A DNA stretch of 29,154 nucleotides from a virus (taxonomy: Duplodnaviria > Heunggongvirae > Uroviricota > Caudoviricetes), in the IMG/VR virus record IMGVR_UViG_2778261301_000008, positions 1 to 29,154 of that record. The stretch is one strand, 5' to 3'. Positions within the stretch are counted from its first letter, which is position 1. Each line of letters starts with the position of its first letter. Below the pieces are notes generated by a model. That model had not been told where the DNA came from. It made no database searches and saw only the letters and a list, made by a program, of their open reading frames with translations. Below are positions 3,824 to 23,196 of the stretch, piece after piece. Position numbers and translations under genes: made by a program.

Positions 3824-4471
3824 TCATCGACCAATCACCACAACCTGACCACCGTCCCCTTCGTCTGCCGTGCTGATTTCCTGAGAAACCACACGAGACC
3901 CCACACGCATTTCACCGTACAGAACAGGCAGAACATTGCCCTGGGCAACCATGTTATCCAGTGATGAAAAATAGGTGTTCTGCTTACCGTTATCCGTGCT
4001 GGTCGCTGTTGGCGTCCGGGCTTTCGGTGCCAGCATCTGGGCCACACCACCCAGGATCATACTGGCCCCTGCCGCATACATGCCCGATACAGCCGCGGCA
4101 CCCAGCCAGCCCACAGGGTTCCACCATGCCACAGCAATCAGCGCCGCCCCCAGCACCACCTGAAACACACCGCCACTTTTAGCTCCCGCCAGACGCGGCA
4201 CGATGTGGATCACGGCACCATTTGCCAGCGGCTCATTAAGACGGGCAGATAATTCGGTTTCACCTGCATCACGCCCGGCAATCCGTACCTGATACCAGCC
4301 GTCGCTCAGTTTCTGACGAAACGCCGGGAGCTGTGTGGCCAGTGCCCGGATGGCTTCAGCCCCCGTTTTCACACGAAGGTCGATGCGGCGACCAAATCGT
4401 TGTAAATCCCCGTAAAGGCAGATGCGCGCCATGCCCGGTGACGCCAGAGGGAGTGTGTGCGTCGCTGCCAT
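3824..4471 (-). CDS. I: Tail assembly protein I
   Basis: N-terminus MAATHTLPLASPGMARICLYGDLQRFGRRIDLRVKTGAEAIRALATQLPAFRQKLSDGWYQVRIAGRD and C-terminus ...NGKQNTYFSSLDNMVAQGNVLPVLYGEMRVGSRVVSQEISTADEGDGGQVVVIGR match recalled lambda gpI. Confidence 0.9.
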   Translation of the reverse strand: MAATHTLPLASPGMARICLYGDLQRFGRRIDLRVKTGAEAIRALATQLPAFRQKLSDGWYQVRIAGRDAGETELSARLNEPLANGAVIHIVPRLAGAKSGGVFQVVLGAALIAVAWWNPVGWLGAAAVSGMYAAGASMILGGVAQMLAPKARTPTATSTDNGKQNTYFSSLDNMVAQGNVLPVLYGEMRVGSRVVSQEISTADEGDGGQVVVIGR

Positions 4472-6148: not shown

Positions 6149-9100
6149 TCAGGCACTGTATAATCCTCCGTCCCGACGTGATGACTGCATAATTGACACA
6201 ACCCTGCTGTCGATCAGATCCACCAGCCCCCTGGCTGACTGCGTATCTATCTCGCCATTGCTCCCTTTATTCTGAATACTGATGTGATACACGGGAGAAT
6301 AGACAAATCCGCCGCCACCATTCACATTGCCAATGGCTCTGACCCCAAGAGAGCCGTCCGCTGCCCGCGTCAGTGGCATGATAGCTTCAGGCCCGGCCTC
6401 GCCCATCAGTCCGGCACCTTTCGCAAAAGCAAAATACGTCGGCGTATCCACAATAGTGTTACTGTAAGCACTCAGATTTGCCGATGTGTAAACACCACCT
6501 TTTGCGTTTGCTACTGCCCCCGAAATCCATCCGCCTACCGTACCAAGCCACCCTCCGGCGCCGGAGAGTGATTTCAGTCCGTTAACAATGGCCGCATTCA
6601 TCAGAATTTTTGAAACTTCCTGGAGAACTGAACTCCCCCAGTTCCTCCAGTCAACAACATTCCCGGCCAGTGCATCGGAAATATTTGATACCAGCCCGTC
6701 CATGGTGGAAACGACAGCATCTGCCGCCTGCGAAGCATAATCAGTGGCACTGTCTGCCCAGTTCGTCAGCCCCTCCTGGAGTCCGGCATTCCAGTTACTG
6801 CGTAAAGCATCAGCCTTTGCATAATAATCCTGCTGATCGCTGAGACGCTCTTCCAGATATTTTTTATTCAGTTCTTTCTCCTGTTTCCACAGGGCTTCTT
6901 CAATTTCTCCGGCCTGATACTGTCTCAGCAGCTCGTTATTTTTCTGCTCAAACGTCTGCCGGATACTCCACATTTCCTGGAGTCGTTCACGCATCCGTGA
7001 GCCTTCACCATATCCCAGCAACTGCGCGTCGTCAGATGCCCGGGCACTGGCATTACTGTCCGCCAGACTGCTCTCATACGCAGCAAGCTGCTCACGAATC
7101 TTTTTCTGGTCGATGAGTGCTGCATTCTGCAAAAGCGTTTTTTTCTGCGCTTCTGACAGGGTTGATAATTCGCCCTGACTGACCTGATATTTCATCTTAG
7201 CCAGTTCAGTATTCTGCCCTGCCAGTGCTATCTGCTCTTTCTGCTGTTTAATCAGCCGTTTATAAATATCTTCTGTTTTTTCCGCCTCGGTCTTTTTATG
7301 CGCTTTGGGTTTATTTGCCTGATTATTTCGCCATGCATCCAGTGAGTTATTTATATAATTCAGTCTTGCTGTCTGATATGCCTCTCCCACAAAGCCGAGA
7401 TCATCCGCAGCATAACCCAGGCGGGCACGCTCACGGGCTTCCCCCTTCAGGCGGGACAGAGCCAGTTCGCGCTCGCTGTTATTCAGTGCGGTCTGCTGTT
7501 TATCATCCAGGGTTGCCTGTGGCAGCCGTAACGGTACATTCACCAGCCCCTGACGCTGCTGAAGTAACTCATTACCAAGCCCGAGAAGGCGATTAAACTC
7601 GGTATGCTGCCCATTCATGATCAACAGGGACTGATACGCTTTGTTTTGTTCCGCTGCCTGTTGACGGATCAACGCAACCCGCCGCTCCTCCAGCCCGGCA
7701 AGCACATCCTGAATGGATTGCGCTTTGCCCTGCATTTGTGTGAGGCGAGACTGTTCAACTGCCAGTTGATTTGTTGCTTCGGCAAGCCCTTCTGTGACAG
7801 TTTTTACCGACGTCATGTGGTTAATCATAAAACCGTTATCGGTTGTCCAGCCCGGGTTTGCCAGCACGTACTGATAGCCAGCAATTTTTTCCTGTAAGGA
7901 TTTAATCTTACTTTTCTGCTCGTCAATTAACCTGTTCTGCTCCTTCAGTGCCTGCCGCGTCTTTTCCTCATTATCTGACGCTTCAGGAAGCGACATTGCC
8001 GACGTTTTCTGGCGAATTTCGTCGATTGTTGCGGCATACTGGCGTGCAGATTCTCTGGCCTGCTCCTGATTCTGATACATCGTGTACCAGGCCGCGGCCC
8101 CCAGCATGACAAGCCCCGGCACACCCCCAACCAGTCCCAGTGCTCCACTTAACAGACGACTCCCCGCTGACGTGACAGTATTCAGCGTTGTCTGTGCTGC
8201 TGTTCTGGCCGCAATATTACGGGTAAGTGATGCCTGGGCAGCAGCCAGTTTCGCTTCTGCGGCTGCCTGCCTTTCGGTACCGCGAGCAGCAACAACCGCC
8301 TGTTGCGCACGATAAACCGCCGCACGCGCCCTGGCTGTTGCTATCTGTGTCCCCCGAAGTTGCGCTTCCGCAAGAGCCACTTCGTTTCTGGCTGCAGTAA
8401 TTAATCCGGCAGTTGCAGATCCAGCAGAAGACGCCATATTGCCAAAATATCGGGCTACCCCGACGGCAACCAGAGCACCGGCAGCGGTTGCCACAGTGTC
8501 AATATTGCCTGCAATACCATTCAGCACACCAGAGAGCGTCTTTGTCACTCCGCTTGCCTCGTTCGCACCACCAACCCAGGCCATAAAGGCGTTTTCAACT
8601 TTGGTTGCAGAGGATGAAACAGTATCAGGCATTGCTGCATATTCATCACGTAACGCCCCAAGCTGACTAATCAGTGCAGGAACAACCTTATCGGCGGTCA
8701 GTTTTCCGTTATCCGCCATGGCCTTCAGATCCTTACGGGCAACACCCATTCCCGCAGCCAGCGCACGAATAACACGATCGCCGTTCTCATTCACAGAGTT
8801 AAATTCTTCACCGCGCAGCACTCCCTGCGCCAGTGCCTGACTGAACTGCGTGATCACCGAACTGGCTTCTGCTGTACTGGCACCGGATAATTTCAGCCCC
8901 GTGGAGATCGCCTCGGTGACTTTCAGTACCTCCTCAGAACTGTAGCCATACTCCCGCATGGAAGCTGCAGAGCGGGCAAAAAGGCTGGCGTTATCCGAAA
9001 ACGCCGTCCCCGTTCTCTGGCTGATTGCCATTAATTCACGTTGTGATGCCTGAAAATCATCACTGGACTGCGTGGCCTGCTTCAGACGGGCATTGACTGA

Positions 9101-19185: not shown

Positions 19186-19536
19186 TCATCGAATACGTTC
19201 CCTTGCTGTCTTCGCTCTGTGGCATTCCAGGCATAACGACTCAAGATTGGAGTCATCATCGGTGCCGCCATGAGCTTTTGGAATGATGTGGTCTACAGCC
19301 CTGGCCTCAACGGCTCTCCCATTGCGCAGGCAGTTCTGACACAGATGATTATCACGCTTCAGTATGCGCGCACGTATGGCATCCCATTTCGAGCCATAGC
19401 CACGCTGGTGGCGACTCAGTCCGCGTTGATGCTGTACCCATCCTTCGCCACGATGTTTATCGCAGTAACCAGAACTGTCTGTGGTTGTACCTGCGCATCC
19501 ACGCTTACGGCAGGCGCGTGGGATTCGTGATGGCAT
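19186..19536 (-). CDS. HNH endonuclease (packaging-associated, HK97 gp74-like)
   Basis: 116-aa ORF with Cys pairs and H-N-H motif residues (DHIIPKAHGGTDDDSNLESLCLECH); its position upstream of cos/terS is typical of HK97-like phages. Confidence 0.85.
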   Translation of the reverse strand: MPSRIPRACRKRGCAGTTTDSSGYCDKHRGEGWVQHQRGLSRHQRGYGSKWDAIRARILKRDNHLCQNCLRNGRAVEARAVDHIIPKAHGGTDDDSNLESLCLECHRAKTARERIR

Positions 19537-20002: not shown

Positions 20003-20470
20003 CTACTTAATGCACTGGGTGCGGATATATTCCTGCGCCCCTTCCAGTTGCTTCTGCATCGTCATCAACCGTTCTCTGAGGGTGAAATAATCCCGTTCAG
20101 CGGTGTCTGCCAGTCGGGGGCTGGTTGCATTATCCATGCTGGTGGGGCCGGTGGCTTCACGCACGGCTGCGGAGCAACTGGCATTGACCCGCAGGCGCTT
20201 ACGGCCAGCGGCAACATCAGCGCGCAGAGTTTCATTTTCAGCTTGCGCATTGGCTAATTCTCTCGAGTACTTTGCATCGAGCGCAGCAACATCACGCTGA
20301 CGCTGCTGCATGTCAGCGATGGTGGCGATCGCCTGCTTCAGCTCACTGACTTTTTTATCACGCTGTTCTTTGTAGGCGATGGCGTTATCACGGTAATGAT
20401 TGACCGCCCACGACAGGCAGACGATGATGCAGATAACCAGAGCATAAATAATCGCGGCGACTCTGCTCAC
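20003..20470 (-). CDS. Rz: Spanin inner-membrane subunit Rz (i-spanin)
   Basis: N-terminus (M)[33 protein letters not shown] and C-terminus [24 protein letters not shown] match recalled lambda Rz; likely GTG start overlapping the R stop; the track ORF extends to 20485. Confidence 0.85.
20065..20250 (-). CDS. Rz1: Spanin outer-membrane lipoprotein Rz1 (o-spanin), embedded in Rz in the +1 frame
   Basis: [61 protein letters not shown]: lipobox LAVSAC, proline-rich, close to recalled lambda Rz1. Confidence 0.82.
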
Positions 20471-21000
20471 TGATCTATCCCCCAACAGGCTAATGCGCTT
20501 TCCTGGTCACGACGAATAACCTGTCCATAGCAGTTATTTGAACGTATGCGGCAATCGCGCCCACCATCTTTTATCCACCAGCGAATCGCCTCGCATGCGC
20601 CCTTACGATCACCGGCATTCAGCCGCTTATAAAACGTCGACGGGAAACACTTACCGGGGCCAATGTTATAGGGGCAAAATGACGCTATACCCGCTTTTTG
20701 TGGTTCGGTCAGTGGTACTTTAATATTGCGCTCCACCCATACCAGCGCCTTATCACGTTCAATGGCGTTAACCTGGTCGCATTTTTCCTTCGACAGTTTC
20801 ATACCGGGAAAAACGGGTTTTCCATCCACCATCGTGGCACCCCGACAGATGGTCCAGATGCCGGAACCATCGCGGTATGCCGTTGTGTGGTTACCTTCTT
20901 TTTCATCCAGAAACTGGTCGAGAATATCAGGCGCGGGCGCACCGACGGCAATCAGTGCCAGAACGGCAGCCGACAGGCCGTATCTGATTTTTGCGTTCAT
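20467..21000 (-). CDS. R: SAR endolysin (phage 21 / P1 Lyz-type lysozyme)
   Basis: 177-aa ORF with an N-terminal signal-anchor-release segment ([16 protein letters not shown]) followed by a lysozyme-like domain. Confidence 0.88.
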
Positions 21001-21063
21001 GGATATTTATCAGGATTTATCGGTTTCTGCCCACGGACAGGTTTATCTGTTCCGGTCAGTGAC

Positions 21064-21414
21064 TTAAGGTTGTGATTCCGGAGGAGTCTTCAGAGAACCA
21101 GTAATTCTTCCTGGTAGCTTTCCTTTGTAGGTTATCCACACATTCTGCGCCTCTAAAATTACGGGGCGCTTTTCCGGCGACTGCTCATCCCCTTCACATA
21201 ACCCGGCAGCAACATCCAAGAAGACCTGTCTGATGCTCCTTCTGGCTGCTGCCTCATAAAACTCCAGCGCGGCACCTTCAACACGGTCCAGCGAGATGTC
21301 CAGGTCAAAAATTTCACCGTCAAAGCGTTTTTTGTCCCGTAACGCTAAAGTTACCGTAACTTTATTCTCAAAATTGCGGATCCCTTTCACAATCAGTTCA
21401 TAGTTTTGAGTCAT
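21064..21414 (-). CDS. Hypothetical protein (116 aa) inserted between holin and endolysin
   Basis: ATG 4 nt after the holin stop, GGAGAG Shine-Dalgarno; same position as the ydfR-type gene between holin and lysozyme in some E. coli prophages (recollection). Confidence 0.6.
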   Translation of the reverse strand: MTQNYELIVKGIRNFENKVTVTLALRDKKRFDGEIFDLDISLDRVEGAALEFYEAAARRSIRQVFLDVAAGLCEGDEQSPEKRPVILEAQNVWITYKGKLPGRITGSLKTPPESQP

Positions 21415-21418
21415 TGAA

Positions 21419-21634
21419 TTACTCTCCCCGTGCAGCCTTACGCTTGTCTTCTCTGATTTTGAAGTACAGATTTGTCAGATAAGTCAGGAAGCCCAGAACC
21501 AGACTCCCCAGTACACCAATCGCAGCCCACTGTGACGGACTAACCTGATCAAGCCACCGTAAAAACCAGTAGCCAGCACTGCCTGCGGAGGTGCCGTAGG
21601 CAATGCCCGTTGAAATTTTGTCCATGGATTTCAT
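21419..21634 (-). CDS. S: Class II holin S21-type pinholin with dual start motif
   Basis: 71-aa [71 protein letters not shown], nearly identical to my recollection of phage 21 S; Met1/Met4 dual starts. Confidence 0.9.
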
Positions 21635-21926: not shown

Positions 21927-22001
<75 letters not shown>

Positions 22002-22003
22002 AT

Positions 22004-22079
<76 letters not shown>

Positions 22080-22204
22080 CGCTGGTTCCTCGGGTGTGAA
22101 TGAGATGCCCGGATACATAATTTACCCTTCCCTCGGAACCGCAGAGATAATACAAATAAATAACCAGAATTCAATATTTGCTTATTCGTCTGTCGAAAAA
22201 GTCA

Positions 22205-22270: not shown

Positions 22271-22295
22271 AAAAAACCCGCTGAGTGGCGGGCTG
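22271..22295 (-). terminator. Putative tR' terminator downstream of the late promoter
   Basis: Minus strand CCCGC-cactca-GCGGG followed by a T6 run, about 60 nt downstream of the predicted pR' start. Confidence 0.5.
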
Positions 22296-22374: not shown

Positions 22375-23196
22375 CTATCGCGTTACCCTCTTTAACTGCC
22401 GCTCCGCCCATGACTCTTCAATGTCAAACCGAACCACCAGCGTATCGTAAAAACGCTTCACTGATTTTTTCCACGTATCAAGAGTGATAGCGCTCGTCAC
22501 TTTGCATATGGCATTAAACGCCTCTGTTGACGGCAATCTTTCATAGCCACGACCACCACAACGCTGGCAGTCTCTGATAACAGGCATACCACGTTTTACC
22601 GACTCTTCACGATGAATGGCGACACCACGCCCACGGCAATCCTTACAGGCGGTGGAGACCTCACCCTTTCCCCCGCATTCAGGACAGGCAACTTTTACCA
22701 CTTCCCGGACTTTTTTCCATTCTTCCCAGTAAGACGGATACACGCCTTTTGTACACTTTGCCCATACTGGCGGCTTGCCATCCGGATACTGGACCTTGTT
22801 TGTAAAAACTACGCTTTCAATAAATTTTTTCCCACCGCAACAAGGGCACTGTTTTTTACTCGCTGCACTGCGGGCATAATCCTCAAAAGCGTACGAAGCC
22901 ATAATGCGCATCACTGCCGGTTTTATTTCTGCCGGAAGTTTTCTCAACGCCGCCACGCGATCGCACCGACTGAGTGCATAATCTGCCAGTAATTCTGTTG
23001 CCCGCGCCCTGTCATTCATACTGATGCCCATTTTCCCCAGGAACGCAGAAAATCCCATCTCAGCCCGGTTTTGTGTCATACCCTGCGCAGCCATCACATC
23101 AGTGATGCTCAGCGCATCTTTTGACGTCGAGGCGGATGCATCAGTCAGTCCTAGCGATTTTGGGGAATAGTATTTCGGTAAATCTTCCAGCTTCAT
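22375..23196 (-). CDS. Antitermination protein Q-like, with four CxxCxGxG zinc-finger repeats
   Basis: 273-aa ORF directly upstream of pR'/tR' and the lysis genes; ATG overlaps the rusA stop (ATGA); repeats CPCCGGKK, CPECGGKG, CKDCRGRG, CQRCGGRG. Confidence 0.65.
   Translation of the reverse strand: MKLEDLPKYYSPKSLGLTDASASTSKDALSITDVMAAQGMTQNRAEMGFSAFLGKMGISMNDRARATELLADYALSRCDRVAALRKLPAEIKPAVMRIMASYAFEDYARSAASKKQCPCCGGKKFIESVVFTNKVQYPDGKPPVWAKCTKGVYPSYWEEWKKVREVVKVACPECGGKGEVSTACKDCRGRGVAIHREESVKRGMPVIRDCQRCGGRGYERLPSTEAFNAICKVTSAITLDTWKKSVKRFYDTLVVRFDIEESWAERQLKRVTR

Follow-up and report, generated by a model that had tools for sequence, protein, structure and literature searches.

The sequence examined here is the 29,154-nt IMG/VR record IMGVR_UViG_2778261301_000008, assigned to the tailed phages (Caudoviricetes) and referred to over its whole length as the window. 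It carries a lysis cassette in which a gene of the ydfR family (DUF1327) lies between the holin gene S and the lysozyme gene R, followed by Rz with an embedded Rz1. The ydfR open reading frame (ORF) runs for 116 codons from an ATG (21412-21414), and its holin, lysozyme, Rz, and Rz1 neighbors are all encoded on the same minus strand. The original prediction, made from the sequence alone, had described a 116-amino-acid (aa) ORF beginning 4 nt after the holin stop with its own ribosome-binding site and had guessed at a DUF1327/YdfR-type protein; the ORF is real, and homology searches bear out the guess. Its product matches Pfam DUF1327 (PF07041) at 145.1 bits (E = 7.5e-43, residues 1 to 112; the curated gathering score is 25 bits), is assigned to PHROG 406/2091 (function unknown), and is 100% identical to a protein of phage vB_EcoS-611R1 annotated as "putative YdfR family protein." Across relatives, the ratio of nonsynonymous to synonymous divergence (dN/dS) is 0.1 to 0.6 over the N-terminal 73 codons, with synonymous divergence reaching saturation. 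Given the family match, the identical annotated phage protein, and these dN/dS values, the ORF, as judged by sequence comparison, is not a chance reading frame.

In coding orientation, the boundary with the holin gene reads ...CGG GGA GAG TAA TTCA ATG, in which the holin stop TAA (21419-21421) is followed by the spacer TTCA (21415-21418), placing the ydfR ATG 4 nt past the stop. The purine run GGGGAGAG (21422-21429), which makes up the last holin codons, resembles a Shine-Dalgarno (SD) sequence and is a possible ribosome-binding site for ydfR. On the downstream side, the last ~16 nt of the spacer between ydfR and R (CCTGATAAATATCC before the ATG; 21001-21016) are kept in ydfR-bearing cassettes and contain no obvious SD, so that R is left with an SD-less leader (CCTGATAAATATCC-ATG) and the holin-embedded SD goes to ydfR. 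For the hairpin predicted in this spacer, stability does not exceed that of shuffled sequence (z = -0.04). Consensus scans detected no promoter-like or terminator-like site in the S-ydfR-R stretch or flanking ydfR, and between the candidate tR' and Rz the only such sites are two inside or beside tRNA genes; the 4-nt spacer upstream of ydfR is also too short to house a promoter. From the lack of promoter-like and terminator-like sites within S-ydfR-R, we infer that the Q-dependent late transcript is the sole source of ydfR expression.

The encoded protein can be divided into a conserved N-terminal domain and a variable C-terminal tail. A first AlphaFold2 run on the full-length protein was weak, with a predicted local distance difference test (pLDDT) score of 59, and the domain modeled from a 35-sequence alignment including distant members reached a pLDDT of 90 and a predicted template modeling score of 0.76. 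Strands are predicted at residues 5-14, 18-27, and 34-43, and the helix at residues 50-73 (24 residues). Both DUF1327 motifs are present, YEL near the N terminus (Y5, E6) and (F/Y)YE at the start of the helix (Y53, E54), the latter two residues hardly varying in the 35-sequence wider-family alignment. YdfR-family proteins are 103, 104, 114-116, 176-183, 206, or 287 aa long, with unrelated C termini (loci L002-L011 and L020). One tail variant forms a coiled-coil-like extension of ~65 residues, and the stretch between the YdfR domain and R resembles a recombination hot spot. The window protein is acidic (pI 5.5) and has a maximal Kyte-Doolittle hydropathy of 0.69 over 19 residues, predicting no membrane segment. 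The domain model found no match in the PDB by Foldseek at E <= 0.001 and none in a BFVD structure search, and a sequence profile search of the PDB gave no match either; hits below significance are no more than leads.

The arrangement in the window is that of the Qin prophage of Escherichia coli K-12, essQ-ydfR-rrrQ-rzpQ(/rzoQ), with a 4-nt spacer after the holin stop in both. K-12 YdfR (b1555) is 81% identical and 96% similar to the window protein over residues 1-74, and the Qin holin is 80% identical to that of the window. The two loci differ in the C-terminal tail, which is unrelated in the 103-aa K-12 protein, and at the junction with the lysozyme gene: the K-12 ydfR stop overlaps the rrrQ start (ATGA), whereas the window has 63 nt there. 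The same four-gene order and 4-nt spacer recur in YYZ-2008, mEp460, and 11 Escherichia/Shigella-type loci. Hence, the novelty that the original prediction implied for the extra gene does not hold: the gene and its position are already known, having been annotated since the K-12 genome as essQ-ydfR-rrrQ and being present in thousands of genomes.

Comparison with cassettes lacking ydfR shows how it is placed. In phage 21 (OL657228.1), direct inspection agrees with the earlier statement that S21, R21, and Rz are contiguous, and the ribosome-binding site of R is annotated inside the holin 3' end. DLP12 (essD-rrrD-rzpD) and 933W (S-R-ant-Rz) likewise have no gene between S and R, and all three share with the window the holin type and the Rz/Rz1 embedding. 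Phage 933W shares the holin and lysozyme types of the window; there, the holin stop and R are likewise 4 nt apart, with an identical GGGGAGAG ahead of R (positions compared: window 21001-21016 and 21415-21429 with L021 4040-4055). In the window, ydfR holds exactly the slot of 933W R together with its ribosome-binding site, as if it had been precisely inserted; the adjacency of S and R in phage 21, DLP12, and 933W is what would be expected if ydfR were a moron. Since R of 933W starts at exactly the position of ydfR, the gene content of phage 21, DLP12, and 933W shows ydfR to be dispensable for lysis in these relatives. The insert may also lower endolysin translation in cis, independent of any YdfR activity.

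The original prediction had called the cassette phage-21-type, a name that suits only part of it. The window holin is identical to S21 of phage 21 at 69 of 71 positions, but the lysozyme is of the RrrQ/933W-R type, with 34% identity to R21 (~34% to RrrD and 93% to K-12 RrrQ). Instead of an R21-type signal-anchor-release (SAR) endolysin directly after S, the window has ydfR intervening, and it combines an S21-type holin, ydfR at 4 nt, an RrrQ-type lysozyme, and an Rz with embedded Rz1, so that Qin-type is the better name.

Genes of this type are widespread in E. coli. DNA resembling ydfR was found in 4349 of 5426 complete E. coli genomes (~80%), at 8618 places in total and at up to 10 in a single genome, and the whole 1.7-kb cassette occurs in E. 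coli chromosomes at up to 98.9% identity, annotated as [quoted passage not shown] As for phages, 101 records encode the protein; most are Stx1a- and Stx2c-converting phages (Stx, Shiga toxin), with mEp460, YYZ-2008, and BP-4795 also among them, and at least 573 IMG/VR contigs encode the window-type protein. Among the IMG/VR loci retrieved, the 4-nt spacer between holin and ydfR is universal (80/80), and the 63-nt gap before R is nearly so (71/76). Otherwise the family is very small, with 320 clusters among 5.8 billion proteins and, at 50% identity, 90 representatives among 1.84 billion, and a viral-contig profile scan with alignment A2 returned near-identical copies only. In one-genome-per-species data, the family is confined to Escherichia and Shigella, barring two contigs in metagenome-assembled genomes labeled Veillonella/Bacillota. 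These two contain E. coli-type holin-ydfR-lysozyme cassettes (L008, labeled Veillonella parvula; L010, labeled Bacillota), and one further protein, P0071, is labeled Enterococcus faecalis. Such Firmicutes-labeled records most likely reflect misbinning or contamination rather than host range.

An exhaustive profile search recovered distant relatives outside this setting, namely, domain-only DUF1327 proteins of 72-99 aa with 25-40% identity. The DUF1327 gene comes after the tape-measure gene in Citrobacter prophages and is flanked by gpM-like and gpL-like tail genes in a Yersinia prophage and in two other contigs. One contig has it between gpI and gpJ, and a Cronobacter prophage and a metagenomic phage carry it with the lysis genes on one side and the HNH/terminase genes on the other. 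Two contigs (L104 and L105) have it after a holin of another family, PF16080. Salmonella phage ES18 provides an annotated example: its gp24 is a DUF1327 protein consisting of the N-terminal domain only, encoded between gpM-like gp23 and gpL-like gp26, and both gp24 and the convergent gp25 are annotated as "possible moron; function unknown," with putative terminators there. ES18 gp24 thus lies outside the lysis cassette and has a convergent partner, whereas the window ydfR lies in the lysis cassette and has none; in a tblastn search with the window protein, gp24 was too distant to be detected. In every context examined, ES18 and the window included, the DUF1327 gene has the orientation of the late operon. 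By these placements, the family is shown to be not lysis specific and, as far as genome comparison can tell, mobile among at least four late-region positions. That the domain is kept while moving among these junctions makes a dedicated regulator of holin or endolysin unlikely.

Some of these loci show further features. In L104 (3001-3517) and L105 (1305-1788), two overlapping ORFs (72 aa and then 107 or 96 aa) both match DUF1327, which points to a frameshift within one gene or to a tandem duplication. Two-domain DUF1327 proteins (P0189 and P0192) and an internally duplicated 196-aa protein (P0072) were also seen. In the tail-module loci L015 (~4140-4170) and L018 (4162-4179), the DUF1327/partner pair is followed, on the plus strand, by a hairpin with a T-run that resembles a terminator and lies just ahead of the gpL-like gene, at places equivalent to those of the putative ES18 terminators; these hairpins fit moron-type boundaries there, unlike the window.

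A convergent opposite-strand ORF of 74-96 codons follows DUF1327 in every divergent locus examined and in some Escherichia cassettes (L004 and L005), the full set being L004, L005, L012-L018, L103-L107, and ES18, with the two stop codons ranging from a 35-nt overlap to 15 nt apart. The partner ORFs match PHROGs 10490, 2572, 2411, and 6806, all function unknown, and NCBIfam gave no match for YdfR or the partner ORFs. The PHROG 10490 partner adjoins DUF1327 at three genome positions, where the DUF1327 proteins are 23-43% identical, and its synonymous differences (pS, 0.8-0.94) exceed the nonsynonymous ones (pN, 0.19-0.44), indicative of a constrained coding gene. BLASTP detected no mutual similarity among partner families beyond A and B. 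The window and the paired locus L004 are collinear except for one clean indel of ~272 nt that contains the partner ORF. The L004-type partner occurs in 1126 of 5426 E. coli genomes, adjoining an annotated YdfR gene in the rows sampled, and the L005-type partner occurs in 314 E. coli genomes. No partner-ORF homologue was detected within the window by tblastn; by this comparison, the window copy is the solo form, as are K-12 Qin and most copies.

The remaining genes of the window cassette are conventional (Table 1). The lysozyme carries an E-x8-D-x5-T motif, read from the sequence, and a weakly hydrophobic Ala/Gly-rich N terminus (Kyte-Doolittle maximum of 1.87 at residue 9), making it plausibly a SAR endolysin of a lineage other than R21; among the ydfR-bearing loci examined, the identity of this RrrQ-type lysozyme never falls below 91%, and the same holds for Qin RrrQ/933W R. 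Rz probably starts at a GTG overlapping the R stop (GTGA), with a TTG at 20485 as the alternative, based on the sequence and on the annotation of the close relative ON470580. The two tRNA genes of the window, tRNA-Gly and tRNA-Thr, occupy the same place as tRNA-Asn and tRNA-Thr of phage 21, between tR' and S, and phage ON470580 (97% identical) has a third, tRNA-Met, at the tRNA site upstream of the holin gene. The window Q has an Antiterm match in two stretches as well as a zinc-finger signal of the DnaJ type (CXXCXGXG). Q is 273 aa in the window versus 229 aa in ON470580, apparently different Q alleles beside near-identical lysis cassettes. Between Rz and the small terminase subunit gene lies a 116-aa HNH endonuclease gene (19186-19536, minus strand), labeled "homing endonuclease" in ON470580, an HNH-terminase pairing typical of HK97-like packaging modules.

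Table 1. Features of the ydfR-bearing lysis region of the window and positions of convergent partner ORFs in other loci
Feature	Sequence	Position	Strand	Description and basis
ydfR-family (DUF1327) gene	window	21064..21414	minus	116 aa, stop codon within range; ORF list, Pfam PF07041
Conserved N-terminal domain, codons 1-73	window	21196..21414	minus	Predicted three antiparallel strands, then one long helix; AlphaFold2
Variable C-terminal tail, codons 74-116	window	21064..21195	minus	Predicted disordered; pLDDT <50 for residues 71-116
Holin-to-ydfR junction	window	21415..21429	minus	SD-like GGGGAGAG + TAA + 4-nt TTCA before ATG; read from sequence
ydfR-to-R spacer	window	21001..21063	minus	63 nt; junction comparison and alignment
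Class II pinholin, S21 type	window	21419..21634	minus	71 aa, MKSM dual start; Pfam PF04971 (Phage_holin_2_1), E = 8e-35
Lysozyme, RrrQ/933W-R type	window	20467..21000	minus	177 aa; Pfam PF00959 (Phage_lysozyme)
Rz i-spanin	window	20003..20470	minus	Pfam PF03245 (Phage_lysis), E = 5.5e-48
Rz1 o-spanin lipoprotein gene	window	20065..20250	minus	Embedded in Rz; Pfam PF06085, E = 5.3e-19
tRNA-Gly(TCC) and tRNA-Thr(TGT)	window	21927..22080	minus	Between late terminator and holin; ARAGORN, Rfam
Intrinsic-terminator-like hairpin, candidate tR'	window	22275..22294	minus	Downstream of Q; scan, consensus match only
Q-type late antiterminator	window	22375..23196	minus	273 aa; Pfam PF03589, E = 5.9e-51
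Partner ORF	L004	4311-4589	minus	
Partner ORF	L005	4500-4766	minus	
Partner ORF	L012	3766-4053	minus	
Partner ORF	L015	3778-4029	minus	
Partner ORF	L016	3747-3986	minus	
Partner ORF	L018	3745-4026	minus	
Partner ORF	L103	3282-3506	minus	
Partner ORF	L104	3465-3725	minus	
Partner ORF	L106	3233-3517	minus	
Partner ORF	L107	3242-3526	minus	
Partner ORF, ES18 gp25	L110	2501-2788		

What does such a gene do in the late operon? The reading we favor, with confidence only a little above even, is that the late operon of a lambdoid E. coli prophage carries ydfR as an accessory passenger rather than as part of the lysis machinery. The gene would be made from the late transcript at about the level of R in 933W-type cassettes and would be translated via the SD embedded in the last holin codons. 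YdfR would then bind a host factor in the cytoplasm during late lytic growth; the leading molecular candidate is RNase E, via its catalytic N-terminal half, and/or RNA, and in this way YdfR might tune RNA processing or decay while the phage relies on one very long late transcript. The family as a whole is mobile and mostly paired with a convergent small gene, the window copy being its partner-less form.

The RNase E lead comes from work on the K-12 protein, which was recovered in a two-hybrid screen and gives signals with Rne residues 1-597, the catalytic N-terminal half (PMC13232886, RNA Biology 2026). Residues 1-72 of YdfR are enough for the two-hybrid signal, Strep-YdfR co-purified Rne 1-598, and the Strep-YdfR preparation carried DNase-resistant nucleic acid (PMC13232886). 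The searchable literature on DUF1327, ydfR, essQ/rrrQ, and pinholin plus Qin contains no functional study besides this report. Since the window protein is 81% identical to K-12 YdfR over the RNase E-binding region, RNase E/RNA is the leading candidate, but by analogy with K-12, and we regard this step of the mechanism as tentative and rather doubtful. Other phage proteins are reported to target RNase E, including phiKZ Dip, T7 gp0.7, and T4 Srd, none of which has a significant structural or sequence relation to YdfR; Dip is said to bind the C-terminal scaffold of RNase E, as opposed to the N-terminal catalytic half with which K-12 YdfR was found.

Several observations count against an accessory role exerted through RNase E. 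The RNase E data were obtained by over-expression, and the co-purification was done without a nuclease control, so RNA could bridge the contact, and over-production of YdfR changed very few transcripts (PMC13232886). The functional reading of the window protein is by analogy with its K-12 homologue, and the relatives at 25-40% identity may differ in function. Moreover, in Escherichia the gene always has the invariant junction to the holin gene and is followed by an RrrQ-type lysozyme gene in the loci examined, which a lysis-linked function would predict likewise.

Such a lysis-linked function was one of the two options in the original prediction, which proposed either a modulator of lysis timing or an unrelated moron. 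As a modulator, cytoplasmic YdfR would bind either to the pinholin, at its basic C-terminal tail, or to the membrane-tethered SAR endolysin, on its cytoplasmic face, delaying or sharpening triggering. The fixed position in Escherichia 4 nt past the holin stop with use of the holin-embedded SD, the acidity of YdfR beside a basic holin tail, the co-occurrence of an RrrQ-type lysozyme in every lysis-cassette locus examined, and the DUF1327 genes after the second holin family, PF16080, in L104 and L105 are all consistent with it, and displacement of R to an SD-less leader could alone alter the endolysin-to-holin ratio. The small soluble cytoplasmic lysis regulators T4 RIII and P1 LydB, reportedly encoded in or near lysis genes, would be the model for YdfR in that case, but they have no sequence or family similarity to YdfR, whose relatives, as a further difference, also occur outside lysis cassettes. 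Searches of Pfam, PHROGs, and NCBIfam likewise revealed no likeness of YdfR to known antiholins or lysis regulators (S21-71, T4 RI/RIII, P1 LydB, and P2 LysA), and K-12 YdfR was found with RNase E rather than envelope proteins. Because ydfR is missing from phage 21, DLP12, and 933W, which lyse using this holin type, because YdfR is without a membrane segment, and because homologues reside in tail modules and beside terminase genes, we prefer the moron option and judge control of lysis timing to be distinctly unlikely. The term moron fits in its broad sense, as an insertion between otherwise adjacent genes, and not in the strict sense, as the consensus scan detected no promoter or terminator of its own.

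The recurrent convergent ORF raises another possibility, a mobile two-gene module in which DUF1327 and the 74-96-aa partner would act, for example, as a late antidote or regulator and a lysogen-expressed effector, or in which the pair is controlled via its overlapping 3' ends; the window copy would then be partly orphaned. Abutment of the two genes in all the paired loci listed above, retention of a coding PHROG 10490 partner at three positions while DUF1327 drifted to 23-43% identity, and the clean indel of ~272 nt separating the window from paired L004, with that partner type in 1126 of 5426 genomes, argue in its favor. We nevertheless consider it unlikely, since at least four partner PHROG families without detectable mutual similarity could instead mark an insertion hot spot, and most Escherichia copies (K-12 Qin, 71/76 IMG/VR loci, and the window) are partner-less yet under purifying selection. 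Neither gene matched a PADLOC defense model at E <= 0.1 (window protein, two distant homologues, and three partner ORFs), and consensus promoter scans for the partner ORFs stayed at chance level, with none found. In an extended version, DUF1327 would be the conserved late-strand member of an ES18 gp24/gp25-type module that couples the pair to host RNase E/RNA, with the window as a partner-deleted derivative. Such a module would hop between late junctions of temperate Enterobacterales siphophages (holin/endolysin, tape measure or M/L, I/J, and lysis/terminase), its partner being a fast-evolving small helical protein, probably expressed independently, and its role would be that of a late antidote or regulator of a lysogen-expressed effector or RNase E-dependent processing of overlapping convergent transcripts; this version seems to us quite improbable. 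Finally, ydfR might be selfish or neutral filler, locked between two essential lysis genes, carrying the SD region and of no benefit to phage or host. The K-12 gene is essentially silent, with almost no reads under standard growth, and its over-expression is nontoxic and alters few transcripts (PMC13232886), and the C-terminal tail varies greatly, with frequent truncations and fusions. Such a fate is very unlikely, given the dN/dS of 0.1-0.6 that the N-terminal domain shows against relatives whose synonymous divergence ranges up to saturation and given the conservation of the domain across genera and genome positions.

The ydfR gene is among the commonest E. coli prophage genes, and a 2026 report ties the K-12 protein to RNase E (PMC13232886). 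The comparison adds that ydfR takes the slot and ribosome-binding site of 933W R, that the lysozyme beside it is not of the R21 type, that the family is not lysis specific, and that its divergent members have a convergent partner gene that is absent here; a family that is not lysis specific and mostly has a convergent partner narrows the hypotheses worth testing. Since ydfR sits in the lysis cassettes of Stx1a and Stx2c phages, altered late-RNA stability or lysis would also alter toxin release.

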